A stretch of DNA of 29,701 nucleotides, taken from a virus. Lineage: Duplodnaviria > Caudoviricetes. The notes below the pieces were generated by a model. The model was not told the DNA's origin. It saw only the letters and a list, made by a program, of their open reading frames with translations, and did not search any database. Below, piece by piece: positions 1 to 28,168 of the stretch. Position numbers and translations under genes: made by a program. Within the stretch, counting starts at the first letter, position 1; the number at the start of each line of letters is the position of its first letter. The stretch spans positions 1 to 29,701 of the IMG/VR virus record IMGVR_UViG_3300020043_001641. The stretch is one strand, 5' to 3'.

Positions 1-2
1 AC

Positions 3-119
3 CTTGAAACGTCAAAAAGATTTGCTATAAAATGCTGTCAATTAATAAGAAGTGAAAGCGAAAATGTTTATCAAATACGATATTTTGATGAAGTAATTAA
101 TCAAATCGAAAAACTATGA
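3..119 (+). CDS. 3' end of a small phage hypothetical protein (partial, runs off the window)
   Basis: Open frame LETSKRFAIKCCQLIRSESENVYQIRYFDEVINQIEKL*; its TGA overlaps the ATG at 116 (ATGA coupling). Confidence 0.55.
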   Translation, partial: LETSKRFAIKCCQLIRSESENVYQIRYFDEVINQIEKL

Positions 120-781
120 AAATAAGATGCTCACAATTAGGGAAAATTATGACAAGCTCTCGGAGTAAATCGGAGGTGTTAAGTCAAACAACGAAATCGT
201 ATATTCAAGAACTAGCTTTAGAACATTTGTACGGTATTAAAAAGGATTTTAATTCTAGGTACACGGATAAGGGGAATGAAGTTGAACAAGCTTCAATTGA
301 ATTAACGGAGCGAGTTCTTGAGTTGGGTTTCGTAACAAAAAACGAAGACTATTTTGAAAACGATTACATTAAAGGAACACCAGACATTATAACAGATAAA
401 ATGGTAATCGATGTTAAAAGTTCTTGGAATGCTTTGACGTTCCCGTGGTTCGAAGACGAACTTCCAAATAAAGACTATTATTACCAAGTCCAAGGTTACC
501 TTTGGCTTACTGGGAAACCTTTTGGAATGGTTGCTTATTGTTTAGTTAATACACCTTCAAATATTGTAGACGATGAAATCAGAAGAACGGCGTGGTCAAA
601 GTACGAAATCGAACCTAGTGACGAAACTATTCGAGACGTTATGGCTGCTCACAATTTCGATAATATACAAGAAGACCGAAGAGTAAAGGCTTATTTATTC
701 AACTACGATGAACACGTTATCGAGCAGATAAAAACACGAATAGAAGAATGTCGTAAATATTTTAATACCTTAATAAAATGA
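116..781 (+). CDS. YqaJ/lambda-exonuclease-like PD-(D/E)xK nuclease (copy A)
   Basis: KGNEVE...GTPD...IDVKSS...YYYQVQGY motifs; the minus-strand copy lies close to an ERF annealase. Confidence 0.8.
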   Translation: MKIRCSQLGKIMTSSRSKSEVLSQTTKSYIQELALEHLYGIKKDFNSRYTDKGNEVEQASIELTERVLELGFVTKNEDYFENDYIKGTPDIITDKMVIDVKSSWNALTFPWFEDELPNKDYYYQVQGYLWLTGKPFGMVAYCLVNTPSNIVDDEIRRTAWSKYEIEPSDETIRDVMAAHNFDNIQEDRRVKAYLFNYDEHVIEQIKTRIEECRKYFNTLIK

Positions 782-990
782 ACATAACACACGAAAACGA
801 ACCGATTCAAAACGACGATAGCGTTTTAATGGCGGTAATGGCTAAATACTGGGAGCGTTCCCGAGTAGGCCAAGCGAAATACGGAACTAATTTAGACCGC
901 TTGGACGTTGAATTTAGTCAATGGCTTGAACACCTTCAGGAGGAGTTAATGGATGCAACGCTTTATATTGAAAAACTTAAAAGATACTAA
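778..990 (+). CDS. Small all-alpha NTP pyrophosphohydrolase (MazG-like) family protein (copy A)
   Basis: G..KYG...W..HLQEELMDA..Y motif; protein identical to 7651-7863. Confidence 0.55.
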   Translation: MNITHENEPIQNDDSVLMAVMAKYWERSRVGQAKYGTNLDRLDVEFSQWLEHLQEELMDATLYIEKLKRY

Positions 991-991
991 A

Positions 992-1156
992 ATGAAAACA
1001 CCAGTAATTTTATTAATTATTTTATGGTCAATTGGTCTTTTAATTAGTGCAAAAAAACACGGACAACCTAGAGGTGAGTTTAATCTTTATACTTCAATAT
1101 ATGCGGTTGGAATTGAATTTTTGCTTTTATATTGGGCAGGATTGTTTAACCTTTAA
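992..1156 (+). CDS. Small two-TM membrane protein (copy A)
   Basis: MKTPVILLIILWSIGLLIS...AVGIEFLLLYWAGLFNL; start moved to ATG 992, just after the upstream stop; conserved in copy B. Confidence 0.7.
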   Translation: MKTPVILLIILWSIGLLISAKKHGQPRGEFNLYTSIYAVGIEFLLLYWAGLFNL

Positions 1157-1167
1157 ATTTTAGAAAA

Positions 1168-1377
1168 ATGAAAATAACACTTGAATTTGAATCAATGCAA
1201 GATGCTGAACCGTATTTAAACGGACTTAATTACCACGTTGCTTTGTGGGACTTTAACCAGTGGATGCGTTCGCAATTAAAACACGGAGAACTAACCCAAG
1301 CTAAATGGGAAATTTACCAAGAAATACGAGAAAAATTCTTTAGTATATTAGAAGAAAATAAAGTAAATTTAGATTAA
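1168..1377 (+). CDS. Conserved phage hypothetical protein (copy A)
   Basis: 69 aa; differs from 7264-7473 at two residues. Confidence 0.8.
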   Translation: MKITLEFESMQDAEPYLNGLNYHVALWDFNQWMRSQLKHGELTQAKWEIYQEIREKFFSILEENKVNLD

Positions 1378-1389
1378 AATTAAAAAGTT

Positions 1390-1599
1390 ATGACTTACGA
1401 CAACACAAACACGGGTGCAATATTTAAAAACGACAAAAAAGCGGATAACCACCCTGATTATAAAGGTAAAATAAACGTAAAAGGCGAAGACTTCGATATA
1501 GCCTTATGGGTTAAAGACGGTAAAAATGGCAAATTCTTTAGTGCCAAGATTAGCGAACCTTTCAAGAAAGAAGAAAGCGTGTTCGACGTACCCTTCTGA
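1390..1599 (+). CDS. Small SSB-like / DUF736-like OB-fold protein (copy A)
   Basis: GAIFKN..K....PDYKG.I......IALW....G.FFS motif and an SSB-type acidic tip (FDVPF). Confidence 0.65.
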   Translation: MTYDNTNTGAIFKNDKKADNHPDYKGKINVKGEDFDIALWVKDGKNGKFFSAKISEPFKKEESVFDVPF

Positions 1600-1771
1600 G
1601 CGTCCGTTTAGGGTTTACACTTGGATTGAAAACAAAGTCGATTACTTTATTGTCCAAGCTTACTCGAAAGAAGACGCTGTTAAACGGTTAGACATTCACC
1701 CTAAATTAGTCTTTGAAGTGTGGACGATGGAGGAATGGCGAAAATATTGCGATAGAAAAAAAACACTTTGA
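1526..1771 (+). CDS. Hypothetical protein (start uncertain)
   Basis: C-terminal part (IVQAYSKEDAVKRLDIHPKL) is homologous to the unannotated ORF 6848-7027 (IVQAHSNEDAVKKADIHPKL). Confidence 0.6.
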   Translation: MANSLVPRLANLSRKKKACSTYPSERPFRVYTWIENKVDYFIVQAYSKEDAVKRLDIHPKLVFEVWTMEEWRKYCDRKKTL

Positions 1772-1793
1772 TAAATTTTACTATTATTTAGTA

Positions 1794-1887
1794 GGTTAGA
1801 GTCTCAAAAATAGTTAACCGAACGGTATTATTGCCCGATTATTTGAAAGCGACGTGAGACTCCGCAAGTAAAATGGTCGGGCTTTTT
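1794..1887 (+). ncRNA. Cis-regulatory two-hairpin kissing-loop/terminator RNA (copy A)
   Basis: P1 is GGTTA(1794-98)/TAACC(1815-19) with loop GAGTCTCA. P2 is GCCCGATTATTT(1833-44)/AAATGGTCGGGC(1871-82) followed by TTTTT, and its apical loop has TGAGACTC(1855-62). Same architecture as 6727-6820. Confidence 0.75.
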
Positions 1888-1906
1888 ATTGCTTAAAATT
1901 TAGAAA

Positions 1907-2302
1907 ATGGCAACAGACAAAAACGGAGTAGTAATTTATGCGGATTGGATTACTACATTTGAAAAATTAACAGACGAGGAAGCTGGTAAATTAGTTAAAC
2001 ATTTGTTTCGATACGTCAACGATTTAGAACCGAACTCGGATAGGATTACAGAATTACTTTTTGAGCCTTTCAAACAGACTTTAAAGCGTGATTTATGTAA
2101 ATGGGAAAAGACTAAGTTAGCCCGTTCTGAAGCTGGTAAAAAAGGCGGTATTAAAAGCGGTGAAACAAGACGAAGCAAAACGAAGCAAAATGAAGCAAAC
2201 GAAGCTGTAAGTGTTAGTGTAAGTGATAGTGTAATAAATATAGAAGAACAACCACTTAGACAACCTAAAATCGATATTAACGGATTTGTAATTTTAGACT
2301 AA
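1907..2302 (+). CDS. Putative replication initiator, DUF6291-like N-terminal domain
   Basis: Y.DW...FEKLTDEEAGKL.K.LF.Y pattern, ARSEAGKKGG motif, internal iterons, TAATG coupling to the helicase. Confidence 0.7.
   Translation: MATDKNGVVIYADWITTFEKLTDEEAGKLVKHLFRYVNDLEPNSDRITELLFEPFKQTLKRDLCKWEKTKLARSEAGKKGGIKSGETRRSKTKQNEANEAVSVSVSDSVINIEEQPLRQPKIDINGFVILD
2170..2205 (+). repeat. Iteron-like tandem repeats (candidate origin A)
   Basis: ACGAAGCAAA ACGAAGCAAA ATGAAGCAA ACGAAGC; period ~10 bp, not a codon multiple. Confidence 0.65.
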
Positions 2303-3207
2303 TGTTAATTAACCACAGAAACAACGATGACTTCTTAGAGTTGCTTAGACGGAACGAAGTTCCTATTGGTAAAGGTATAGGTACAGACTTAGATACTTAC
2401 CTAAGATTTAAGGAAGCGTCTTTCAACATCGTTCTTGGACACGCTAATACTGGTAAAACTTATTTCGTTTTGTACTATCTTCTTTGTTTGAGTGTGAAAC
2501 ACTCTCTTAAACACCTAATTTATAGTGCTGAAAACACGGTTACAGGAATGAAACGTAACTTAATAGAGTTGTATTTAGGTAAAAAAATAACCGAAATGGA
2601 TAAGCAAGAACTTGAGACGGCTAAACTCTTCATCGAATTACACTTTGACTTTATAGACACCTCTGAAGCATTGTCAATTGAAAAGTTTATGCAAGAAGTT
2701 CAAAAGTTAGGTAACTATGATGTGTTAATGATTGACCCACACAACTCATTTGTAAGACCTCAAGGCTTTAACGCTCACGATTACGACTATACAATCGCAA
2801 CTAAACTAAGGTTATTTGCCAAAAAGACGAATACAACAATTTATTTATGCGTTCACGCAGCAACTGAGGCACTAAGAAAGACTCACAAAGAAGGCGACTT
2901 TGAAGGACATCCAATGCCTCCAAATATGGCAGACGCTGAAGGCGGCGGTAAGTGGGGAAATAGAGCGGATGATTTTATAGTAATTCATCGTTACGTTGCA
3001 GACCCGTTAAACTGGATGTATACACACGTTCACGTTAAGAAAGTAAAAGAAACTGAGACGGGTGGTAAGCCGACACCGTTAAACGATGCGGTACGTTTTA
3101 AGTACGAATACGGAACGGGGTTCACTTGCGCTGGTGTTAATCCACTCGAACGAAAAGACGAAATATTTGATTTAAAAAGAAATACTAATTTTGATTTGCC
3201 CTTTTAA
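2302..3207 (+). CDS. DnaB/RecA-fold replicative helicase (copy A)
   Basis: Walker A GHANTGKT, YSAEN, Walker B VLMIDP, EGGG...NRADD; follows the initiator. Confidence 0.8.
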   Translation: MLINHRNNDDFLELLRRNEVPIGKGIGTDLDTYLRFKEASFNIVLGHANTGKTYFVLYYLLCLSVKHSLKHLIYSAENTVTGMKRNLIELYLGKKITEMDKQELETAKLFIELHFDFIDTSEALSIEKFMQEVQKLGNYDVLMIDPHNSFVRPQGFNAHDYDYTIATKLRLFAKKTNTTIYLCVHAATEALRKTHKEGDFEGHPMPPNMADAEGGGKWGNRADDFIVIHRYVADPLNWMYTHVHVKKVKETETGGKPTPLNDAVRFKYEYGTGFTCAGVNPLERKDEIFDLKRNTNFDLPF

Positions 3208-3209
3208 CT

Positions 3210-4001
3210 ATGAAAATAGCTTGGTTTTCTTGCGGTGTAACTTCCGCAGTAGCTTGTAAATTAGCACTTGAAATATACGGAACTGAAAACGTAGAACTTT
3301 ACTATATTGTAATAGATTCAGCACACGAAGACAATAAACGTTTTATTGAAGATTGTGAAAAATGGTACGGTAAAAAAATAAACAAAGTTCAATCGGAAAA
3401 ATACAAAGACCAGTTTGACGTAATAGAAAAGATTAAATACATTAACGGAGTTAACGGTGCGCCGTGTACATTACATTTGAAAAAGAATGTAAGGTATAGA
3501 ATAGAAAAAGAAATTGATTTTGACGGTCAAATTTTTGGCTTCGAGTTTGAAAAGAAAGAAATTAATAGAGCAATAAGATTTAGTCAACAATATCCACAAG
3601 CCAAACCGAATTACCCTTTAATAGATAGAAAGATTACAAAAAGTCAATGTGCTGAAATTTTACTAAAAAACGGAATTAAATTACCTAAAATGTACGAATT
3701 AGGATTTCATAACAATAACTGCATCGGTTGTGTAAAAGGTGGGAAGGGTTACTGGAACCACGTAAGAAAACATTTTCCAAACGAATTTAATAAGATGTCA
3801 GAACTTGAAAAGCAAATTGGTGCAACTTGTATAAAAAATAAATACCTTAAAGACTTGAAACCGAATGAAGGAAAACACGAACCTCCAATAGTTCCAGACT
3901 GCGGTACATTTTGCGAGATAGAGTTTGCAGATATTTTAGACCCAAACACGGAAAAAGTTCTTGCTGGTTACACTACAATTAAACAACTTAAACTATTTTA
4001 A
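3210..4001 (+). CDS. PAPS-reductase-like (PP-loop, probable Fe-S) protein
   Basis: N-terminal AWFSCGVTS PP-loop, CTLHLKK, YPLI, NNCIGCVKGG and CGTFC cysteine motifs. Confidence 0.75.
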   Translation: MKIAWFSCGVTSAVACKLALEIYGTENVELYYIVIDSAHEDNKRFIEDCEKWYGKKINKVQSEKYKDQFDVIEKIKYINGVNGAPCTLHLKKNVRYRIEKEIDFDGQIFGFEFEKKEINRAIRFSQQYPQAKPNYPLIDRKITKSQCAEILLKNGIKLPKMYELGFHNNNCIGCVKGGKGYWNHVRKHFPNEFNKMSELEKQIGATCIKNKYLKDLKPNEGKHEPPIVPDCGTFCEIEFADILDPNTEKVLAGYTTIKQLKLF

Positions 4002-4250
4002 ATGGATAAAGAAATATCAATACAGCTTGCTTACATAAATATCAATTCAATTTGGAATAAATTCGAGTTTCGAAAGCGCCTCGAACCAAAACGAGCGGAA
4101 GGCATCGCGCAACAACAAGACGAACTCGAGCAGATTAAAGCTGTTTTAAACACCATAGTAAAGGAAAACAGAGCGTTAAGCAACAAGTTATTGTCAATGC
4201 AAATTGAACTACTTGAAACACAGAAAAAAATACCGTCGATTAAATATTGA
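4002..4250 (+). CDS. Coiled-coil hypothetical protein (copy A; C-terminus probably formed by the junction)
   Basis: Homologous to 4962-5219 (FRKRLEPKRAEGI vs FRKKLEPKKAEGI); last residues IPSIKY are read from the antisense of the other arm. Confidence 0.7.
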   Translation: MDKEISIQLAYININSIWNKFEFRKRLEPKRAEGIAQQQDELEQIKAVLNTIVKENRALSNKLLSMQIELLETQKKIPSIKY

Positions 4251-4306
4251 AGCGGTTCGAATTCGCACCACCACCAAGCGAAAGCTATTAATCCTATTAT
4301 AATCAT
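4222..4306 (-). pseudogene. N-terminal fragment of a small membrane protein, cut at the junction
   Basis: MIIIGLIAFAWWWCEFEPLQYLIDGIF looks like a real gene start (ATGA-coupled to 4303-4431); beyond ~4222 the frame is only the antisense of 4002-4250. Confidence 0.55.
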
Positions 4307-4431
4307 TCTTCAGGGTTTAACTTTACAAACGATTCATAGCTAAATTCCTTTAAAAATTGGTTAGGCGTTCGTCTTTTCATAGCGTATTGACGAAAATTAA
4401 CCCGTAAAAGTTTTGTAAGTATTCTGTTCAT
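4303..4431 (-). CDS. 42-aa hypothetical protein
   Basis: Hand translation MNRILTKLLRVNFRQYAMKRRTPNQFLKEFSYESFVKLNPEE*; fills the gap after ninG and is coupled to the next ATG. Confidence 0.5.
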   Translation of the reverse strand: MNRILTKLLRVNFRQYAMKRRTPNQFLKEFSYESFVKLNPEE

Positions 4432-4435
4432 TGGT

Positions 4436-4972
4436 TCAAATATACAACTTTTTTAATTCTTTTAACTTTTGCTTATAAATCTCGTTGATTTCTCGCAGTT
4501 CTTCAATAGTAAATTTCTTTTCAATATGCGCTTGTTCGTGTAATTCGAGTAATCTTTGTCCTCCAATTCGTTTTTCTATACCGATCTGGTAATTTAAAAG
4601 GTTGCCACTTAAAAATTGGTTACATCGTTCGCATTGTAAATGAACGTTATCCTCATTAAATCTAACGTTTGCGTGTCCCCCTGCGCTGAAATAATGCCCG
4701 CCGTTTTCCTTTTTAGGCTTTTCACCGCACGAAATACACGGAAGCCCAGCGTCACGAAGACGAATGAACTTATTAAACGTGGTTTGTGCTATTTTCAACC
4801 AATCAGAGGCGGTCATTAAGTCCTTTTTTAACTTCGCTTTTTTCTTGTTCCATTGCTTTACTTCGTGTTCTTTTATCATTGCCTTAACACATAGGTCGTG
4901 AAAACAATTTTTTTGTAGTGAGGTGTATGGTGTGAACTCTGAACGGCAGTATTTGCATTTTTTAGTCTTCAT
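4436..4972 (-). CDS. ninG: NinG/Rap-like recombination endonuclease
   Basis: AQ..FNKFIRLRD...PCISCG...GHYFS.G....RFNEDNVHLQC..CN motif set. Confidence 0.85.
   Translation of the reverse strand: MKTKKCKYCRSEFTPYTSLQKNCFHDLCVKAMIKEHEVKQWNKKKAKLKKDLMTASDWLKIAQTTFNKFIRLRDAGLPCISCGEKPKKENGGHYFSAGGHANVRFNEDNVHLQCERCNQFLSGNLLNYQIGIEKRIGGQRLLELHEQAHIEKKFTIEELREINEIYKQKLKELKKLYI
4437..4444 (-). promoter_or_regulatory. Bacteroidota-type -7 promoter box TATATTTG
   Basis: Matches TAnnTTTG; overlaps the ninG stop and lies 5 nt upstream of ATG 4431. Confidence 0.45.
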
Positions 4973-5219
4973 AAATTCTTAAATCATTTATTCGTTGGTT
5001 AGCTTTCATTAATTCCAAATTTAATTGAAATAGTTTAGTCGTTAAAATCTTGTTTTCGTCTTTCAGTTGTTTAAACACCTCATCAACTAACAAAAGGTCT
5101 TTAATAATTACCTCGATACCCTCCGCTTTTTTAGGTTCGAGTTTCTTGCGGAAAATCATTTTGTTAATCGTTAGCGACAAATTAACGGATGCTAGTGTTT
5201 GTTTAAGTGCTTTGTCCAT
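4962..5219 (-). CDS. Coiled-coil hypothetical protein (copy B)
   Basis: Homologue of 4002-4250. Confidence 0.75.
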   Translation of the reverse strand: MDKALKQTLASVNLSLTINKMIFRKKLEPKKAEGIEVIIKDLLLVDEVFKQLKDENKILTTKLFQLNLELMKANQRINDLRIYED

Positions 5220-5224
5220 AGTTT

Positions 5225-6076
5225 TTATTTTAAAGGGTTAATTCCTGCACAAGTAAAACCCGTGCCGTATTCGTATTTAAATAGCACACCTTGGTTTAAT
5301 GGCGTTGGCTTACCTCCCGTTTCCGTTTCTTTTATTTTCCTAACGTGTACGTGTGTATACATCCAATTTAACGGGTCAGCAACGTAACGATGAATTACTA
5401 GAAAATCGTCCGCACGGTTTCCCCACTTACCACCTCCCTCGGCGTCCGCCATATTTGGAGGCATTGGGTGACCTTCATAGTCTCCGTCTTTGTGTGTTTT
5501 TCTTAAGGCTTCGGTTGCAGCGTGAATACATAAATAAATTGTTGTATTCGTCTTTTTGGCAAACAACCTTAACTTAGTAGCCATTTCATAGTCGTATTCG
5601 TGCGAGTTTGAGTGTTTAGGTCTTAAAAACGAATTGTGAGGGTCAATCATTAAAACATCGTAGTTGCCTAATTCCTGAACGCCTTTCATAAAATCCTCGA
5701 TTGTTAAGGCTTTACTTGAATCAATAAAATCAAAATGTAGTTCAATGAAGTTTTTTGCTGTTTCAAGTTCGTTTTCGGTTAGTTCAATTATTTTTTTACC
5801 TAAATACAATTCAATTAAATTACGCTTCATTCCTACAACCGTGTTTTCAGCTGAATAAATTAGGTGTTTAAGGTCGTGTTTCACACTTAGGCAAAGTAAA
5901 TAATACAAAACAAAGTACGTTTTTCCAACGTTAGCGTGTCCTAAAATAATATTGAAACTAGCTTCTTTAAATCTTAAGTATTCGTCTAATTCTATACCTA
6001 TACCCTTACCAATAGGAACTTTATTTAAACGAAGTAATTCTAAAAATTCGTCGTTATGTCGGTGGTTTATTATCAT
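5225..6076 (-). CDS. DnaB/RecA-fold replicative helicase (copy B)
   Basis: Walker A GHANVGKT; colinear with 2302-3207 but lacks its C-terminal tail. Confidence 0.8.
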   Translation of the reverse strand: MIINHRHNDEFLELLRLNKVPIGKGIGIELDEYLRFKEASFNIILGHANVGKTYFVLYYLLCLSVKHDLKHLIYSAENTVVGMKRNLIELYLGKKIIELTENELETAKNFIELHFDFIDSSKALTIEDFMKGVQELGNYDVLMIDPHNSFLRPKHSNSHEYDYEMATKLRLFAKKTNTTIYLCIHAATEALRKTHKDGDYEGHPMPPNMADAEGGGKWGNRADDFLVIHRYVADPLNWMYTHVHVRKIKETETGGKPTPLNQGVLFKYEYGTGFTCAGINPLK

Positions 6077-6546
6077 TATTCAATTATTACGAATCCGTTA
6101 ATATCTAGTTTTGGTTGTCTAAGTGGTTCTATCGAACCTTTTTGCTTTTCTTTTTCTTCTTTATTATTCTTGTTTGTTGTTAGTTGTTTGTTAGTTGTTT
6201 GTTGATTGCTTGTTACTTGCTTGTTAATTGGTTTTTCTTCACTTTGGTAAGTCTCATATTTACAGATAGTTATAAGTGTAAATTTGTTTGTTGTTTGCGT
6301 GTTAATTTCGTTCGTTTTTTCAAACTTTTTTAATAACGTTCTAATCGTTTGAATTGATATTCCCGTATCACTTGAAATCTTACCATATGAAGTTATAAAC
6401 TGACCTTTGTTAATTGTATTACCTTGCCAAGTTCCTTTGGCGTGGTTAGCTTTTAAAAGTAAATACATAAACAAATGAACCGCTTCGCTTTTGTTAAACC
6501 ACTCCCAGTTTAAAAATTGACGATGTATTTTAACCCAACCGCTCAT
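6076..6546 (-). CDS. Putative replication initiator / replisome organizer (winged-helix type)
   Basis: GWVKIHRQ..W.W......LF.YLLLKANH...KGQFITS...IS..TG.S...IRT.LK.F...NEI pattern; internal iterons; TAATG coupling to the helicase. Confidence 0.75.
   Translation of the reverse strand: MSGWVKIHRQFLNWEWFNKSEAVHLFMYLLLKANHAKGTWQGNTINKGQFITSYGKISSDTGISIQTIRTLLKKFEKTNEINTQTTNKFTLITICKYETYQSEEKPINKQVTSNQQTTNKQLTTNKNNKEEKEKQKGSIEPLRQPKLDINGFVIIE
6178..6230. repeat. Iteron-like 11-bp tandem repeats (candidate origin B)
   Basis: TGTTAGTTGTT TGTTAGTTGTT TGTTGATTGCT TGTTACTTGCT TGTTAATTG; exact 11-bp period. Confidence 0.7.
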
Positions 6547-6709
6547 CTGTTAATTTTATATAGTCAACTAAAGCTTTAATTTCGTATTCATTCATAGTGT
6601 AATATGTTTCACCGTGACCGTTTAAAATTGACACCATTAACTCTTTCTCGTCAGTTCGATAAAATTCAATTTCACCATCTGAATTCATTGATTTAATTAA
6701 AAGTTGCAT
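6530..6709 (-). CDS. 59-aa hypothetical protein overlapping the initiator start
   Basis: Hand translation MQLLIKSMNSDGEIEFYRTDEKELMVSILNGHGETYYTMNEYEIKALVDYIKLTDERLG*. Confidence 0.6.
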   Translation of the reverse strand: MQLLIKSMNSDGEIEFYRTDEKELMVSILNGHGETYYTMNEYEIKALVDYIKLTDERLG

Positions 6710-6726
6710 ATAAATTATTTTAAATT

Positions 6727-6820
6727 AAAAACCCTCTGTAAATCCATAGCTTCCAACTTCTACTTCATTACAAAGGGTCTAAAAATTTTAGTTAGGTCAT
6801 ATAACGTTGGAAGTGACCTA
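6727..6820 (-). ncRNA. Cis-regulatory two-hairpin kissing-loop/terminator RNA (copy B)
   Basis: On the minus strand, P1 is UAGGUCA/UGACCUA with loop CUUCCAAC(6813-6806). P2 is ACCCUUUGUAA/UUACAGAGGGU followed by a U tract, and its apical loop has GUUGGAAG(6757-6750). Confidence 0.75.
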
Positions 6821-6847
6821 TTTAATAATATAAAAAAAACGAAAGTG

Positions 6848-7027
6848 TTATTTATAAAAACCTCTACGTTCTTGGTTGAATTTCTCCCAAGCTTCTAATG
6901 TCGAAACGTGGTAAATTAATTTAGGGTGAATGTCCGCTTTTTTAACAGCATCCTCGTTTGAATGCGCTTGGACTATTCGCCAATCTCGAACACCCTCCGA
7001 TTGGTATATTAAATAATATGCTTTCAA
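6848..7027 (-). CDS. 59-aa hypothetical protein (TTG start)
   Basis: Hand translation MKAYYLIYQSEGVRDWRIVQAHSNEDAVKKADIHPKL...; TTGA overlap with the upstream stop; homologous to 1526-1771. Confidence 0.65.
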   Translation of the reverse strand: MKAYYLIYQSEGVRDWRIVQAHSNEDAVKKADIHPKLIYHVSTLEAWEKFNQERRGFYK

Positions 7028-7251
7028 AACGGTAGGTCGGTTTTCGGTTGTTCCAAACCCTCAAAAACGTCTTTCTTGTAAGGTTCGCTAATCTTCGCAC
7101 TGAAAAATTTGCCATTTTTACCGTCTTTAACCCATAAGGCTATCTCGAAGTCTTCGCCTTTTACGTTTATTTTACCTTTATAATCGGGGTGGTTATCCGC
7201 TTTTTTGTCGTTTTTAAATATTGCACCCGTGTTTGTGTTGTCGTAAGTCAT
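7024..7251 (-). CDS. Small SSB-like / DUF736-like protein (copy B)
   Basis: Nearly identical core to 1390-1599, different tail ending TDLPF. Confidence 0.65.
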   Translation of the reverse strand: MTYDNTNTGAIFKNDKKADNHPDYKGKINVKGEDFEIALWVKDGKNGKFFSAKISEPYKKDVFEGLEQPKTDLPF

Positions 7252-7263
7252 AACTTTTTAATT

Positions 7264-7473
7264 TTAATCTAAATTTACTTTATTTTCCTCTAATATACTA
7301 AAGAATTTTTCTCGTATTTCTTGGTAAATTTCCCATTTAGCTTGTGTTAGTTCTCCGTGTTTTAATTGCGAACGCATCCACTGGTTAAAGTCCCACAAAG
7401 CAACGTGGTAATCTAACCCTTTTAAATACGGTTCAGCATCTTGCATTGATTCAAATTCAAGTGTTATTTTCAT
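7264..7473 (-). CDS. Conserved phage hypothetical protein (copy B)
   Basis: Near-identical to 1168-1377. Confidence 0.8.
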   Translation of the reverse strand: MKITLEFESMQDAEPYLKGLDYHVALWDFNQWMRSQLKHGELTQAKWEIYQEIREKFFSILEENKVNLD

Positions 7474-7484
7474 TTTGTTCTAAT

Positions 7485-7649
7485 TTAAAGGTTAAACAAT
7501 CCTGCCCAATATAAAAGTAAAAATTCAATTCCAACCGCATATATTGTAGTATAGAGATTAAACTCACCTCTTGGTTGTCCGTGTTTTTTTGCACTTATTA
7601 AAAGTCCAATTGACCATAAAATAATTAATAAAATTACTGGTGTTTTCAT
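7485..7649 (-). CDS. Small two-TM membrane protein (copy B)
   Basis: One residue different from 992-1156. Confidence 0.7.
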   Translation of the reverse strand: MKTPVILLIILWSIGLLISAKKHGQPRGEFNLYTTIYAVGIEFLLLYWAGLFNL

Positions 7650-7650
7650 A

Positions 7651-7863
7651 CTAATATCGTTTAAGTTTTTCAATATAAAGCGTTGCATCCATTAACTCCT
7701 CTTGTAAGTGTTCAAGCCATTGACTAAATTCAACGTCTAATCGGTCTAAATTAGTCCCGTATTTTGCTTGTCCAACTCGGGAACGCTCCCAGTATTTAGC
7801 CATTACCGCCATTAAAACGCTATCGTCGTTTTGAATCGGTTCGTTTTCGTGTGTTATATTCAT
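7651..7863 (-). CDS. MazG-like NTP pyrophosphohydrolase family protein (copy B)
   Basis: Identical protein to 778-990. Confidence 0.55.
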   Translation of the reverse strand: MNITHENEPIQNDDSVLMAVMAKYWERSRVGQAKYGTNLDRLDVEFSQWLEHLQEELMDATLYIEKLKRY

Positions 7864-8525
7864 TTTATTAAGGTATTAAAGTATTTTCTACATTCTTCTA
7901 TTCGTGTTTTTATTTGCTCGATAACGTGTTCATCGTAGTTGAATAAATAAGCCTTTACTCTTCGGTCTTCTTGTATATTATCGAAATTGTGAGCAGCCAT
8001 AACATCTCGAATAGTTTCGTCACTAGGTTCGATTTCGTATTTTGACCACGCTGTCCGTCTGATTTCATCGTCTACAATATTTAAAGGGGTGTTAACTAAA
8101 CAATAAGCAACCATTCCAAAAGGTTTTCCAGTTAACCAAAGGTAACCCTGAACTTGGTAATAATAGTCTTTATTTGGAAGTTCGTCTTCGAACCACGGGA
8201 ACGTTAAAGCATTCCACGAACTTTTAACATCGATTACCATTTTATCCGTTATTACGTCGGGAGTTCCTTTAATGTAATCGTTTTCAAAATAGTCTTCGTT
8301 TTTTGTTACGAAACCCAACTCAAGAACACGTTCTGTTAATTCAATTGAAGCTTGTTCAACTTCGTTACCCTTGTCGGTGTAACGTGAATTAAAATCTTTT
8401 TTGATTCCGTATAAATGTTCAAGTGCTAATTCCTGAAGATAGCTTTTCGTCGTTTGGCTTAACACCTCGGATTTACTCCGAGGGTTAGTCATTATTTTAC
8501 CGATTGCGCTGCATCTTATTTTCAT
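7860..8525 (-). CDS. YqaJ/lambda-exonuclease-like nuclease (copy B)
   Basis: Near-identical to 116-781; start set at 8525 (MKIRCS, TAATG overlap with the upstream stop). Confidence 0.8.
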   Translation of the reverse strand: MKIRCSAIGKIMTNPRSKSEVLSQTTKSYLQELALEHLYGIKKDFNSRYTDKGNEVEQASIELTERVLELGFVTKNEDYFENDYIKGTPDVITDKMVIDVKSSWNALTFPWFEDELPNKDYYYQVQGYLWLTGKPFGMVAYCLVNTPLNIVDDEIRRTAWSKYEIEPSDETIRDVMAAHNFDNIQEDRRVKAYLFNYDEHVIEQIKTRIEECRKYFNTLIK

Positions 8526-8965
8526 TACCATAACCATTTAATAAATTTTCTAATTACTCCTATTTGAACCGTGTTTGTATTGTCAATTTTAGGTTGTTCT
8601 TGAAATGTTTCAGGTTCAATTTTAACTTTACGATTGTATTGTCTTTTTTGGTCGAATAAAGTAGGTGTTTGGCTTATTTCTTTTAAACGTCTTGTTTGAT
8701 TAAAATCAAATATTTCATCTAAAAAAGAATTTACAATTTTAATATTTGGCTCGTATACGTCATTCCAATAATAAAAGCCATTATTTTTTTTATAAATTAT
8801 TTCTTTTTTTATTAAGAAATAAGGAAAATTATTTGAAGTGTTAAATTGCTTTGATAAAATTCTTAAATCAGAATATTTTCCGCTTTTTTGTTGGTAAGCC
8901 GTTAAACAATTTAAATACTTTGAAATGGTTTCAGGTCTTGAACCTCTTCTTTTTACTGTTTTCAT
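8525..8965 (-). CDS. Hypothetical basic protein, possibly DNA-binding
   Basis: 146-aa ORF coupled to both neighbours; differs from the gene found upstream of the copy A exonuclease. Confidence 0.65.
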   Translation of the reverse strand: MKTVKRRGSRPETISKYLNCLTAYQQKSGKYSDLRILSKQFNTSNNFPYFLIKKEIIYKKNNGFYYWNDVYEPNIKIVNSFLDEIFDFNQTRRLKEISQTPTLFDQKRQYNRKVKIEPETFQEQPKIDNTNTVQIGVIRKFIKWLW

Positions 8966-9495
8966 AGTTGGTTAAGTTGATTAATTTGTGATTGTGTTAA
9001 ACTAAATTTACTCAAGTCTGTCTTTGTGGCAAGTCCGTCTTCAATAGCAGTTAAAGCCTTTTGAAAGCGTTCATCTGAAATAGTCGGCTTTTGCGTTTTA
9101 ATAGCTTCTGTTGCTAAATTCGAATCGTCGTCGATAGCTTGTAAGCTTAACAAACTTTGAAGCGTGTAACGGCGAAAATAAGTAACTGCCGAACCGATTT
9201 TTTGAGGGTCTAAAATCTCGGGTAATTTCATACAACTCTCGCAAATTTCACCCGAATCGATATCGATTATTCGACTAAACACATAACCGTCTTCAATTGG
9301 TTGTAATAATAATAGGTCATTTTCTAGTAGAACTGGTTCAACCTCGTCAAGTATTGCATTAATGTCGGCATAATTGTTCTTAAAGTGTGGATTTTTAGCG
9401 TTCTTTGCTACCTTTTTAATTGATTGCTTTGCTTTGTGAAGCTTTTGCAGGAATGTTAAGGCCGCAACCTCAACGATTTGTTCTTGTTTTTTCAT
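8962..9495 (-). CDS. erf: ERF-family single-strand annealing protein
   Basis: KNAKNPHFKNNYAD and PQKIGSAVTYFRRYTLQSLL motifs. Confidence 0.85.
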   Translation of the reverse strand: MKKQEQIVEVAALTFLQKLHKAKQSIKKVAKNAKNPHFKNNYADINAILDEVEPVLLENDLLLLQPIEDGYVFSRIIDIDSGEICESCMKLPEILDPQKIGSAVTYFRRYTLQSLLSLQAIDDDSNLATEAIKTQKPTISDERFQKALTAIEDGLATKTDLSKFSLTQSQINQLNQL

Positions 9496-18175: not shown

Positions 18176-18745
18176 ATGATTAAACTAGGTAAGCAAGAAA
18201 TTCCAAACGTAATTAACGAACTAACTATTGAACAATTTGAAAAGGTTAGCGAGTTCACAAATAACCAAGAACTAGACGCTTTTGAAAAATGGGTGTCCGT
18301 GTTCACCTACCTTGGAGCGGATGAAAACGAAGTTAACGAAATGGACTTTTCTGAATTCAAAGACAAGGTTAAAGAATTTAACACCGTAACTTATAAAGCA
18401 CCGACTAAGTTTAAAAAGACGGTTGAACTTGAGGGTTATAAATATGTTAGTTATGACAAGAAATTTAAACTTTCAGTTCGTGACATTAAGCACATTGAAA
18501 AGATAATTAAGAAAGACCCGACCCGTTACGTTAGTAAAATGTTGGCGGTAATATTTAAACGTGAAGACCTCGATACGGTTGAACATTATTCGGACGCTCA
18601 CATCAAACACAAAGCAAATTTATTTAAGTCTTTAAATGCTGAAATTGCACTTCCATTTATGGCTTACGTTGCCGAAAAATTAAAAGACACCGCTAAACAG
18701 ATGACCGATGAAGTTGCCGCAGTCGTGGAATCAAATAACGGTTAA
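18176..18745 (+). CDS. Hypothetical protein, tail-assembly-chaperone-like
   Basis: IPN..NELTIEQF motif shared with the downstream gene; located within the virion module. Confidence 0.6.
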   Translation: MIKLGKQEIPNVINELTIEQFEKVSEFTNNQELDAFEKWVSVFTYLGADENEVNEMDFSEFKDKVKEFNTVTYKAPTKFKKTVELEGYKYVSYDKKFKLSVRDIKHIEKIIKKDPTRYVSKMLAVIFKREDLDTVEHYSDAHIKHKANLFKSLNAEIALPFMAYVAEKLKDTAKQMTDEVAAVVESNNG

Positions 18746-19439
18746 TCAATTCATTGAACTTGCCAAACTAGAACAAATTGAATTTGATTCGTTGTTTGAA
18801 ATGCAAGTCGAGATGCTTTCGATTTTAGCGGACGAAGACCCCGATGAATTTTACGACCTAGAAATTGACGAACTTAACGCATTAATCGAACCGCTTAAAT
18901 TCTTACGGCAAGAACCACGGGTTAAGATTACTCAACAAATTGATAAATTCACGTTTAAACCTTTCGAAAAAATTACCCTAGGCGAATTTATTGATACCGA
19001 TTACTTCACGGTTAAAGACAAAATCGGAAATATACCGATTATTTGCGCAATATTTTACAGACAAACCAACTTTGATGAGTGGGGAAATCGTGTTTTTGAA
19101 CCTTATAAATACAACTTATTTGAACGCGCTGAAGTGTTTAAAGAAATACCCGTTACATCAGTGTTCGGAGTAGTTCACGAATACTTAAAATTTAGAGATA
19201 ATTTTACTAAACAATATGAAAACTTATTTGCACCTCAATTCGATGGCGAAGAGGACACAACTGAACTAACTCCCGAAGAAAAAAAGGAAGCTGAAAACGA
19301 AAAGAAGCGTTCAAAGTTCGCTTGGGAGTCTTTACTTTACAATTTAGCAGGTGAAGACATCACGAAAATTGACGCCATCACCGACCTTAATTTAACCTTT
19401 GTGTTTAATATGCTTTCAATGAAGCACGTTTTGAGTTAA
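18708..19439 (+). CDS. Hypothetical protein, tail-assembly-chaperone-like (paralogue)
   Basis: LPQSWNQITVNQF, internal repeat FEKITLGEFID, C-terminal W..LLY.LA..DITKID.IT. Confidence 0.6.
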   Translation: MKLPQSWNQITVNQFIELAKLEQIEFDSLFEMQVEMLSILADEDPDEFYDLEIDELNALIEPLKFLRQEPRVKITQQIDKFTFKPFEKITLGEFIDTDYFTVKDKIGNIPIICAIFYRQTNFDEWGNRVFEPYKYNLFERAEVFKEIPVTSVFGVVHEYLKFRDNFTKQYENLFAPQFDGEEDTTELTPEEKKEAENEKKRSKFAWESLLYNLAGEDITKIDAITDLNLTFVFNMLSMKHVLS

Positions 19440-26760: not shown

Positions 26761-28168
26761 TTATCGAATCTTGGTTTGAAAGCATCACACTAATTGAATG
26801 CTTAATTAAATTCTTATTCTTTTGCCTTGCCACATCGAAACTATTTTCTTGAATTATACAAGCGTAATATTTTGAACCTATTTTAATATAAACTTCGGGT
26901 GATGTCATTAACTCCTGAAAATAATTGTCCATTTCAACGGTTAGCCAATTGGTGTTTAATTGAATCGTCTTTGTAACGGTTGGGTTTATTACACGTGTTC
27001 CCTTTTCGTCCGTTCCGTAAGTCCACATTCCACTATCGGTGTAACCAGTAACGTCTTGTTTATAGGTCGTCTTTTGAACGTTACCTTGTTCGTATGCCCT
27101 CAACTGAAAAGCGAAACTACCGAACGACCCTAACCTATCCAAGAAAGCAATTTCGAACGGTTCAATAACGCAGCGCCTATCAACGTCAATAGTGTAAATT
27201 AAAGAATTGTCGTTGTAACTGGAATCAGTATAAACAAAAGAATAATAAGTAGTTGTTGGTTTAATTAAAGGCAACGTTCCAACCAACGGAGTAAGTGTTC
27301 CAAGGTTATTAGGACCAATCCCGACTTGTGTTATTAAAGCGTTGTCGGTTATTGGCTTTGCGAAAATGTCGCCATCCGAATTACCAAACACCATAAAGCC
27401 AGTAGTGACAAAGTTATTCATTACGTTTATCCAAAGGTCTTGCGTTTCAGTAACTCGAAAGCCCGTTTTAGGTAAATCGGTTAATAGTCTTGCGGTTGCA
27501 TTGTTAGCAATAAAGTTCAATTCGTCGTAAGTTCTAAATCCTGCCCAAGGTAAAGCACCATTAAAAACATATTTATTTAAGGTGGTTACGATGTCACGTG
27601 TTACCGTCTTTCTATTGTCGGCATAACTTACCGACCCGTTTACCGTTGGGTCAACTACGTTTGAGAATAAAGCGTTTATTGTAAAGTTCGTTGTTCCTGA
27701 AACTGCAATAATCGTCCAAAGTCCATTTACAGCTGCATTCGTTACTCCTGCATTTAAAACGATTTGGTCGCCAACTACGAACGTGTGTGCGGTGGTTGGT
27801 GTAATTTGAATATTACCCGCATTGTTAACTAAGTTTGCCGTGTACGAATAAGACGTAACAAACTCTTCACCGACCTTTAAATCGTACTTGTAATAGCTAC
27901 TAGTCGCAGGGTCGCTTTCAGTTAACGCTTGGTCGAAGTCGTAGCTTACTTTATTCTGTAAAAGCTTACTCAAATCTATTTCGCCGTAGCCATCACCAAA
28001 GCGAGGATAAACCCTATATTCAGCTATTTTGTTCGAAGTTCCCGACTGGTAAACGTCAAAAATATATTTAAACCCTAAATTGTTTTTATTCGTTGAATTG
28101 TACAAAAACTTAATAGGGTTGTAAGCGGGTGTCCTATCGTAAGGTTCGTTTATTGTTGTTATTGCCAT
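26753..28168 (-). CDS. Tail (distal/baseplate) structural protein with an inserted beta domain
   Basis: PAYNP, FKYIFDVY, FLDRLG.F..F.F and LNTNWL...EL.TSPEVY patterns; insert TAHTFVVGDQIVL. Confidence 0.65.
   Translation of the reverse strand: MAITTINEPYDRTPAYNPIKFLYNSTNKNNLGFKYIFDVYQSGTSNKIAEYRVYPRFGDGYGEIDLSKLLQNKVSYDFDQALTESDPATSSYYKYDLKVGEEFVTSYSYTANLVNNAGNIQITPTTAHTFVVGDQIVLNAGVTNAAVNGLWTIIAVSGTTNFTINALFSNVVDPTVNGSVSYADNRKTVTRDIVTTLNKYVFNGALPWAGFRTYDELNFIANNATARLLTDLPKTGFRVTETQDLWINVMNNFVTTGFMVFGNSDGDIFAKPITDNALITQVGIGPNNLGTLTPLVGTLPLIKPTTTYYSFVYTDSSYNDNSLIYTIDVDRRCVIEPFEIAFLDRLGSFGSFAFQLRAYEQGNVQKTTYKQDVTGYTDSGMWTYGTDEKGTRVINPTVTKTIQLNTNWLTVEMDNYFQELMTSPEVYIKIGSKYYACIIQENSFDVARQKNKNLIKHSISVMLSNQDSING

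Follow-up and report, generated by a model that had tools for sequence, protein, structure and literature searches.

Copy B, an RNA element on the minus strand at positions 6,727–6,820 of the window (the whole stretch of 29,701 nt that was analyzed, IMG/VR record IMGVR_UViG_3300020043_001641), belongs to a large family of phage RNAs without an Rfam match. Judging from the sequences collected here, the element is common in phages of Flavobacteria-type hosts, where it lies between a predicted promoter and DNA-replication genes. It is about 95 nt long; the order of features in the family is a promoter box, a small hairpin, a linker of about 13 nt, a long terminator-like hairpin, a U tail, and a start codon. 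The two loops carry complementary stretches, a key in loop 1 and a lock in loop 2, whose pairing we call the kiss. The start codon mostly lies 10–25 nt past the U tract and, in nearly all members, at most about 25 nt from it on the same strand.

Two Copies of the Leader in One Window

The elements of copy B that a first-pass annotation had picked out from the letters were all recovered in the sequence and in the ViennaRNA fold (table 1). Small corrections apply to hairpin 2: the apical stem, given as 3 bp, has 4 bp (GUAG/CUAU), and the innermost "pair" of the lower stem is a U.U. Key and lock are exact complements over 8 nt, and the internal loop of hairpin 2 is GAA/GGA. The folding z-score is −3.1 for the whole of copy B and −4.3 for its hairpin 2, whose predicted stability without any help is −18 kcal/mol; a free-duplex estimate for the 8-bp kiss gives about −10 kcal/mol. 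The counterpart architecture claimed for copy A was located on the plus strand, where it folds alike but more weakly (z = −1.8). The same annotation had placed copy B upstream of an initiator. This is correct for the operon, but a 59-aa ORF intervenes before the DnaD-like gene.

Table 1. Coordinates in the window of the two leaders and of neighboring features.
Feature	Position	Strand	Remarks
Predicted promoter, copy A	1761..1787	+	Box type as in copy B
Copy A, whole	1794..1887	+	Two hairpins and U tract
Hairpin 1, copy A	1794..1819	+	Key at 1799–1806
Hairpin 2, copy A	1833..1882	+	Lock at 1855–1862; internal loop GAAA/AAGUA
U tract, copy A	1883..1887	+	
DUF6291 protein, likely initiator	1907..2302	+	Directly 3' of copy A
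Helicase	2302..3207	+	Next after the DUF6291 gene
Probable mis-join of two related phage genomes	4226..4242		Plus arm with copy A, minus arm with copy B
DnaB-like helicase	5225..6076	−	
DnaD-like loader/replication initiator	6076..6546	−	phrog_2514, E 3e-31
59-aa ORF	6530..6709	−	First gene past copy B; no PHROG or Pfam match
U tract, copy B	6727..6731	−	
Hairpin 2, copy B	6731..6778	−	Intrinsic-terminator-like; 11-bp lower stem, 4-bp apical stem, 10-nt loop
Lock 8-mer, copy B, GUUGGAAG	6750..6757	−	Preceded by two unpaired A
Linker, copy B	6779..6792	−	14 nt
Hairpin 1, copy B	6793..6820	−	7 bp, 14-nt loop; 5' end predicted to coincide with the transcription start or to lie a few bases from it
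Key 8-mer, copy B, CUUCCAAC	6806..6813	−	5' edge of loop 1; then a 6-nt unpaired strand ending in AUA
Predicted promoter, copy B	6824..6849	−	AACAC-N14-TATTATT

The Rfam 15 covariance models gave no match over either copy in bases 1–9000 of the window at E ≤ 10. On 20 further loci they gave just three matches, with E values of 2–4 and to miRNA or lncRNA models; one of these lies over the terminator hairpin of L231, far below the gathering score. A standard terminator scan misses both copies because the loops it allows have at most 8 nt.

The window is a tailed-phage contig encoding a terminase, a portal protein, and a tape measure protein, with an early region that includes Erf, an exonuclease, SSB, a DnaD-like or DUF6291 protein, a DnaB-like helicase, and NinG. 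Bases 116–1571 are an inverted, 93% alike version of 7070–8525, and bases 2250–3156 an inverted, 79% alike version of 5222–6128. Relatives of the minus arm match down to 4226–4236 and those of the plus arm up to 4232–4242; none of the compared loci spans the junction at about 4230, and loose ends of run X1 contigs fall at 4226 and 4229. Taken together, the inverted arms, the lack of a spanning relative, and the loose ends suggest that the window is most likely a head-to-head join between two related phage genomes at about 4230. Bases 1–4242 probably represent a second, diverged early region, and copies A and B probably stem from different genomes. Among the 41 virus records with a model match, 38 carry one match each. 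Both copies are nevertheless real, since their keys recur in other loci, that of copy B in L003, L026, and L027 and that of copy A in L307, L319, L341, and L343.

Several other features of the window were recorded. At the end of the contig (29582–29701), a perfect 60-bp inverted repeat without spacer probably arose by fold-back during amplification or assembly. Inside the DnaD-like gene, at 6163–6240, an 11-bp direct repeat occurs five or more times, possibly as origin iterons within the initiator gene. A PAPS-reductase-family gene (phrog_424) follows the plus-arm helicase at 3210–4001 (+), a slot occupied by methylases or other genes in relatives. Two plus-strand genes without assigned function (18176–19439) are oriented against the structural block. 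They are preceded by a host-type −7 box overlapping the late-type box of the divergent gene, and their layout is kept in G018 and G020–G022.

A Large Family of Phage Leaders

A descriptor free of sequence constraints was run on both strands of the window and 99 loci (612 kb); helicase and SSB searches had supplied 96 of these loci and the record of the window itself the other 3. It gave 28 hits in 27 of the 100 sequences, all sense to the replication operon, with the key at, or adjoining, the 5' edge of loop 1. A looser descriptor applied to 167 loci gave 70 sense and 2 antisense hits; one of the sense hits (L432) looks like a tRNA gene by eye and was left out of the later loop-class counts. 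Using a pattern that describes only the lock and the terminator, we retrieved 120 viral loci of about 400 estimated. Among these 120, 96 form a stem of at least eight pairs, and a complementary upstream key of at least 7 nt is present in 92 of them, one of 6 nt in three, and none in one. The 24 other loci, which do not form such a stem, have a key in two cases, and mismatched (non-cognate) locks found an upstream match in 1 of 410 trials.

A longer pattern, searched in bacterial and archaeal genomes, retrieved 19 loci, nine with a key, all in metagenome-assembled genomes and most on short contigs with phage-like genes. The element was found in 2 of 151 host-family genomes by a weak search in which 25 candidates were scored per genome. 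One leader-like match with an 8-nt key and lock lies on a large host contig (L458; G117:C3, about 1,432,900, minus strand), where it precedes a 404-aa ORF. It is possibly a decayed mobile element. Searching the DNA of annotated phages with a single member was uninformative, and the cultured carriers were reached through their initiator proteins.

Covariation of the Kiss and the Stems

We aligned 62 of the 95 distinct cores together with copy B. Over these 63 members, 92.8% of all cells are paired, against 67.5% in shuffles, and every one of the 12 highest-ranking MI-APC column pairs is a pair of the model. The kiss helix is 99.0% paired with both sides changed in six of its eight pairs, in agreement with the full key and lock covariation noted in the first-pass annotation. 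Its covariation score is 0.67 against 0.20 in shuffles, none of 500 being as high in this control, which ignores relatedness; in slid controls pairing drops to 32–46%. The kiss is nearly strictly Watson–Crick (497 Watson–Crick pairs, 1 G.U, and 5 others). In the lower stem, 91 G.U pairs were counted against 17 A.C pairs. As G.U is far commoner than A.C there, the sense strand is the folded strand. Some lock bases are preset in the lock pattern, and conservation was therefore assessed from the sets found without sequence constraints. In the main loop class, a conserved patch is present at one end of the kiss, consisting of A-U and C-G pairs and the loop sequence AUA. Few nucleotides are kept across loop classes.

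Two trivial explanations were rejected on these data. A chance origin conflicts with the keys found in 92 of 96 loci against 1 of 410 mismatched trials, the sense-only hits, and the covariation above shuffles. A DNA operator or cruciform conflicts with the excess of G.U over A.C in the sense strand, the strand-specific hits, and the sequence turnover.

Promoter Boxes, Spacing, and Loop Classes

A host-type TAnnTTTG box was found 80–120 nt upstream of the U tract 77 times in 95 elements, and in 80 of the 92 parsed cases with a box it lies 4–6 nt from hairpin 1. In Flavobacterium johnsoniae, transcription is described as starting 4–5 nt after the −7 box (PMC6847099). As the two spacings match, hairpin 1 is predicted to form the 5' end of the RNA. 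The window's clade has an AACA(C/A)-N13-14-TATTAT(A/T) box instead of the host box. This box also precedes structural genes in 5/5 genomes, the ATG mostly following 4–7 nt later. On the minus strand of the window, the ORFs ending at 28168, 24006, 18113, and 15541 have it 4 nt upstream of their ATG, and in the relatives G018 and G020–G022 it lies 4–7 nt before structural-gene ATGs. From its positions, it is likely a late promoter giving near-leaderless mRNAs. In G014, the leader and the structural genes share another box type, as judged by eye. Since the ATG lies within about 25 nt of the U tract, there would be little room for a second promoter behind the leader.

Of the 122 parsed members, 56 have a 13-nt linker. 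Loop 1 of the main class consists of eight paired followed by six unpaired bases (35/62), and loop 2 of two unpaired followed by eight paired bases (30/62). Pseudoknots cross the deep groove with a short strand and the shallow groove with a long one, a rule that this layout fits. A second class (11/62) has nearly fully paired loops of 6–9 nt and no conserved patch. The distance from lock to U tract is 16–20 nt in both classes. Spare 5' length is greater for fully paired 6- to 7-nt loops (median 20 vs. 17, P = 7e-5, kinship uncorrected). The internal loop of the family is GAA/GGA or GAA/AGUA, which we take to be triple sheared G.A and bulged-G motifs, respectively. A UNR rule in the lock, presumably a U-turn motif, is frequently followed but was rejected, being broken by locks that start with GUCC or GUCU.

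No conserved alternative antiterminator helix was found in the alignment. The candidate suggested by the fold of copy B, pairing the 3' strand of loop 1 with the upper terminator arm, was rejected: it is 60.6% paired against 60.7% in shuffles (282/500), and just one of its pairs, an A-U, is constant.

Downstream Genes and Carriers

The genes behind the leader were counted for 55 distinct pattern-found elements with 1.5 kb of downstream sequence. One of six likely initiator clusters was present among the first four ORFs in 40 of the 55, and a helicase in 34. Clusters were labeled as initiators from PHROG, Pfam, record names, and their location upstream of the helicase. Two clusters correspond to DUF6291, one is DnaD-like by PHROG, and one matches Lin1244_N; the two remaining clusters have no Pfam match and owe their label to position only. 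Other elements precede primase-polymerases, a DUF1376 protein, methylases, NUMOD4/HNH nucleases, or genes without known function. The leader often stands directly before NUMOD4/HNH-type nuclease genes (L280 at 3948, G003 near 44,054, L010 at 3000, and L112), which suggests that it can move with such nuclease cassettes. Some genomes contain additional copies with different keys heading other operons.

The descriptor hit 67 of 160 initiator loci, and the model 36 of 80 DUF6291 loci; the near-complete relative G019 has no model match. The element is thus dispensable or replaced, since many close relatives lack it.

Cellulophaga phage phi18:3 carries a clear member before its DnaD-like gene (E = 1e-10). 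An annotated 33-codon ORF (gp058) overlapping the second phi18:3 leader (L456, 2040–2141) may be a false gene call. By eye and folding, we recognized the box, key, terminator, and lock before the initiator operon in phi13:2 and phi19:3, hairpin 1 being absent from their predicted folds. By the same means, the element was found before the initiator operon of Flavobacterium phage 11b, with a 6-nt kiss, and before those of elemoA, B, and D, lillamy, tooticki, filifjonk, and hemulen. The two loop modules have traded places in elemo- and lillamy-type phages, each sitting on the other hairpin (L440 at about 2630–2740, L444 at 2128–2245). The contact is therefore kept, and not its polarity. No such element was seen, by eye or with the model, before the initiators of Riemerella phage GDF21 and Vibrio phage 1.165.O. 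The Mumin-group carriers are described as lytic only (PMC7077304), and 2 of the 41 virus records are classed as provirus.

Relation to Known RNA Systems

The closest parallel is the guanidine-IV riboswitch (GGAM-1/mepA) and its Gd4v relative, which likewise combine two hairpins with a loop–loop pseudoknot, the 3' hairpin being a Rho-independent terminator (PMC7736828, PMC11611296, PMC9788692). As in the phage leader, no alternative-pairing antiterminator is described for guanidine-IV. In that class, the kiss was proposed to pull the linker taut, which would keep the outer pairs of the terminator from forming (PMC7736828), and single-molecule work supports a kiss that competes with the growing stem (PMC11611296); kissing-loop antitermination has been called a new regulatory mechanism there. 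The phage leader differs by a variable Watson–Crick kiss of 6–9 bp, by swappable loops, and by having no known ligand. Guanidine-IV elements are described before sugE, MATE, GNAT, or transaminase genes (PMC7736828, PMC9788692), whereas the phage leader precedes genes for initiators, primases, methylases, and HNH nucleases. The leader is not a guanidine-IV member, as it has neither the conserved nucleotides nor the genes of that class, judged by the published description rather than the consensus figure (PMC9788692).

Like the phage leader, the pT181 and IncI/IncB systems place an RNA loop–loop contact upstream of a replication initiator gene. In IncI plasmids the cis pseudoknot is the activating state. 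The pT181 attenuator and the IncI/IncB repZ pseudoknot with Inc RNA are described as antisense control of plasmid rep genes (PMC10724649). In the phage leader, by contrast, a scan for host-type boxes found no counter-promoter, the contact is on the terminator's own loop, and the predicted action is on transcription, not on translation.

The C4 RNA of P1/P7 and the CI RNA of P4 are comparable phage immunity RNAs. P4 CI RNA, with seqA and seqC, resembles the leader as a short phage RNA from the leader of the operon that it controls, with premature termination before replication genes (PMC4825925). Unlike these RNAs of temperate phages, which have separate targets up- and downstream, the leader holds key and lock within one 95-nt unit, shows no second-site excess, and has several carriers described as virulent.

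Among cataloged motifs, DNAVirus_187 is described as 49 nt long, with 122 mostly freshwater sequences, upstream of DUF1376/DUF4373 genes (Fremin et al. 2023, PMC10690425). Its length equals that of hairpin 2, and it is listed as not a terminator and without function; compared by description and not by alignment, it may be hairpin 2 of a related family. We found no such phage leader described in the catalogs and papers searched, subscription journals being mostly outside this search.

A Proposed Attenuation Mechanism

We consider it probable, by analogy, that the leader is a transcription attenuator in which the kiss keeps the terminator-like hairpin 2 from closing. Essential genes lie behind a U-tailed hairpin of −18 kcal/mol, so that read-through appears to be required. 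Among conserved contacts, we found none but the kiss that touches the terminator; together with the lack of a conserved antiterminator and the guanidine-IV build, this suggests that the kiss acts as proposed for guanidine-IV.

Transcription would start at hairpin 1, and the genes behind the leader would be reached only through read-through of the terminator. RNA polymerase has a footprint of about 14 nt, so that a 17-nt arm would free the lock just before the U tract. As in guanidine-IV, the lock would emerge from the polymerase some 17 nt ahead of the U tract, and the ready-folded key would catch it. The tethered short linker would then stop the bottom of the terminator helix, of about 20 steps, from winding, and the polymerase would read on. 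The kiss would close a ring of linker, hairpin 1, and 5' arm, so that winding about the held strand may be topologically hindered. When the key is late or occupied, the terminator would close and an RNA of about 95 nt would be released.

Four inputs can be considered. If kiss antitermination holds, feedback by released leaders is the one that we tentatively favor: as genome copies accumulate, the unbound loops of these leaders would engage the key or lock of newly made transcripts. Such feedback would fail if released leaders kiss themselves or dimerize. A simple kinetic race governed by elongation speed, Mg2+, or temperature is a somewhat unlikely input, a protein binding the kissed form an unlikely one, and a small molecule a decidedly unlikely one. 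By a rough length estimate, the 13-nt linker may span a fully formed hairpin 2, so that kiss and terminator may coexist; an 8-bp kiss may also be always on, and the off signal would then be unexplained.

A doubtful extension of the feedback idea is an attenuator free of ligand and antisense RNA that counts its own transcripts. The cis kiss would turn the replication genes on, freed leaders with the same 8-mer would shut them down, and phages with the same key would inhibit each other. If so, the late-type promoter before the leader, found in two lineages, would flood the cell with inhibitor late in infection.

Alternative Explanations

The element could instead be a stand-alone small RNA of about 95 nt, compacted or stabilized by the kiss, for instance as a protein decoy, with the genes behind it served by leak through the terminator. 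Its own promoter box and terminator suit this reading, as do the retained structured internal loops and the structural-gene-type box in the window's clade (5/5 genomes) and, by eye, in G014. We find it unlikely all the same, given that a same-strand ATG nearly always lies within about 25 nt downstream, that replication functions of several unrelated families mostly follow, that additional copies head operons too, and that few nucleotides are kept across loop classes.

The first-pass annotation had proposed that the 8-mer could serve as a phage-specific address through which incompatibility or superinfection is controlled, tied to each initiator type; it would be read by an antisense or second RNA in the style of pT181, IncI, or P4/P1. 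There are at least 29 keys among 90 canonical members, and a few near-twin leaders differ almost only in the key (L138/L141, L100/L106, and L004/L005), though similar cases occur in other helices. An almost strictly Watson–Crick kiss would also suit an address. So would the different keys of multi-copy genomes (8/8 cases), though sharing by chance is expected in only about 6% per case.

The correlation that the annotation had suggested looking for, between loop 8-mers and initiator family, is absent, and 14 of 17 repeated keys occur with several families. Same-key pairs sharing a family number 36/107 against 28.8 in shuffles for the 68 unmerged rows (P = 0.079); once near-identical leaders are merged, they number 21/79 against 20.8 (61 rows, P = 0.49) or 17/69 against 17.9 (57 rows, P = 0.62). 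Identical keys are also found in phages that are only distantly related.

Keys evolve no faster than the other helices. On trees built without the helix tested (79 of 169 entries omitted as duplicates or non-canonical), the 90 members require 10.4 parsimony steps per pair for the kiss, 14.6 for hairpin 1, 20.0 for the apical stem, and 19.1 for the lower stem. For the 31 sequence-free members, the values are 5.5 for the kiss against 4.8, 9.0, and 7.1, respectively.

A scan of the antisense strand for host-type promoter boxes showed no enrichment (12/94, background 0.146). Across 20 genomes or arms, additional key or lock sites number about as many as expected (8-mers, 6 vs. 4.0; 7-mers, 41 vs. 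32.7; 6-mers, 147 vs. 124); the mild excess includes two near-identical genomes counted twice, and these two are also the only ones in which such sites share a position. Superinfection control, for its part, found no positive support, the Mumin-group carriers being described as lytic only. We therefore regard an address function as improbable.

Equally improbable is a true guanidine-IV-like riboswitch sensing a small molecule, such as the nucleotide pool, before replication. The architecture shared with guanidine-IV and Gd4v, the conserved patch at one kiss end in the main class, and the non-homologous replication proteins downstream would all fit a sensor. Yet six of eight kiss pairs vary, the second class (fully paired 6- to 9-nt loops) has no patch, the swapped forms carry the patch along with the loop module as a structural motif would, and the element is rare in hosts (2 of 151 genomes in a weak search).

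Finally, the kiss might help termination by nucleating or stabilizing hairpin 2, with read-through provided by a separate phage antiterminator protein as a delayed-early gate; copies with different keys heading different operons would suit one shape-reading factor, but the only tested precedent of such a build is an ON switch and hairpin 2 is stable unaided at −18 kcal/mol, which makes this reading extremely unlikely.

Significance

If the attenuation mechanism holds, these leaders would represent a second case of kissing-loop antitermination, widespread and sequence-flexible, by which lytic phages gate DNA replication. The mechanism can be tested on the natural variation of the family, with its dozens of keys, its two loop classes, and its reversed loop polarity, and on carriers in culture, namely Cellulophaga phages phi18:3, phi13:2, and phi19:3 and the Flavobacterium phages 11b, elemo, lillamy, and mumin. 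Variants of the leader could also supply orthogonal transcription switches for Bacteroidota.
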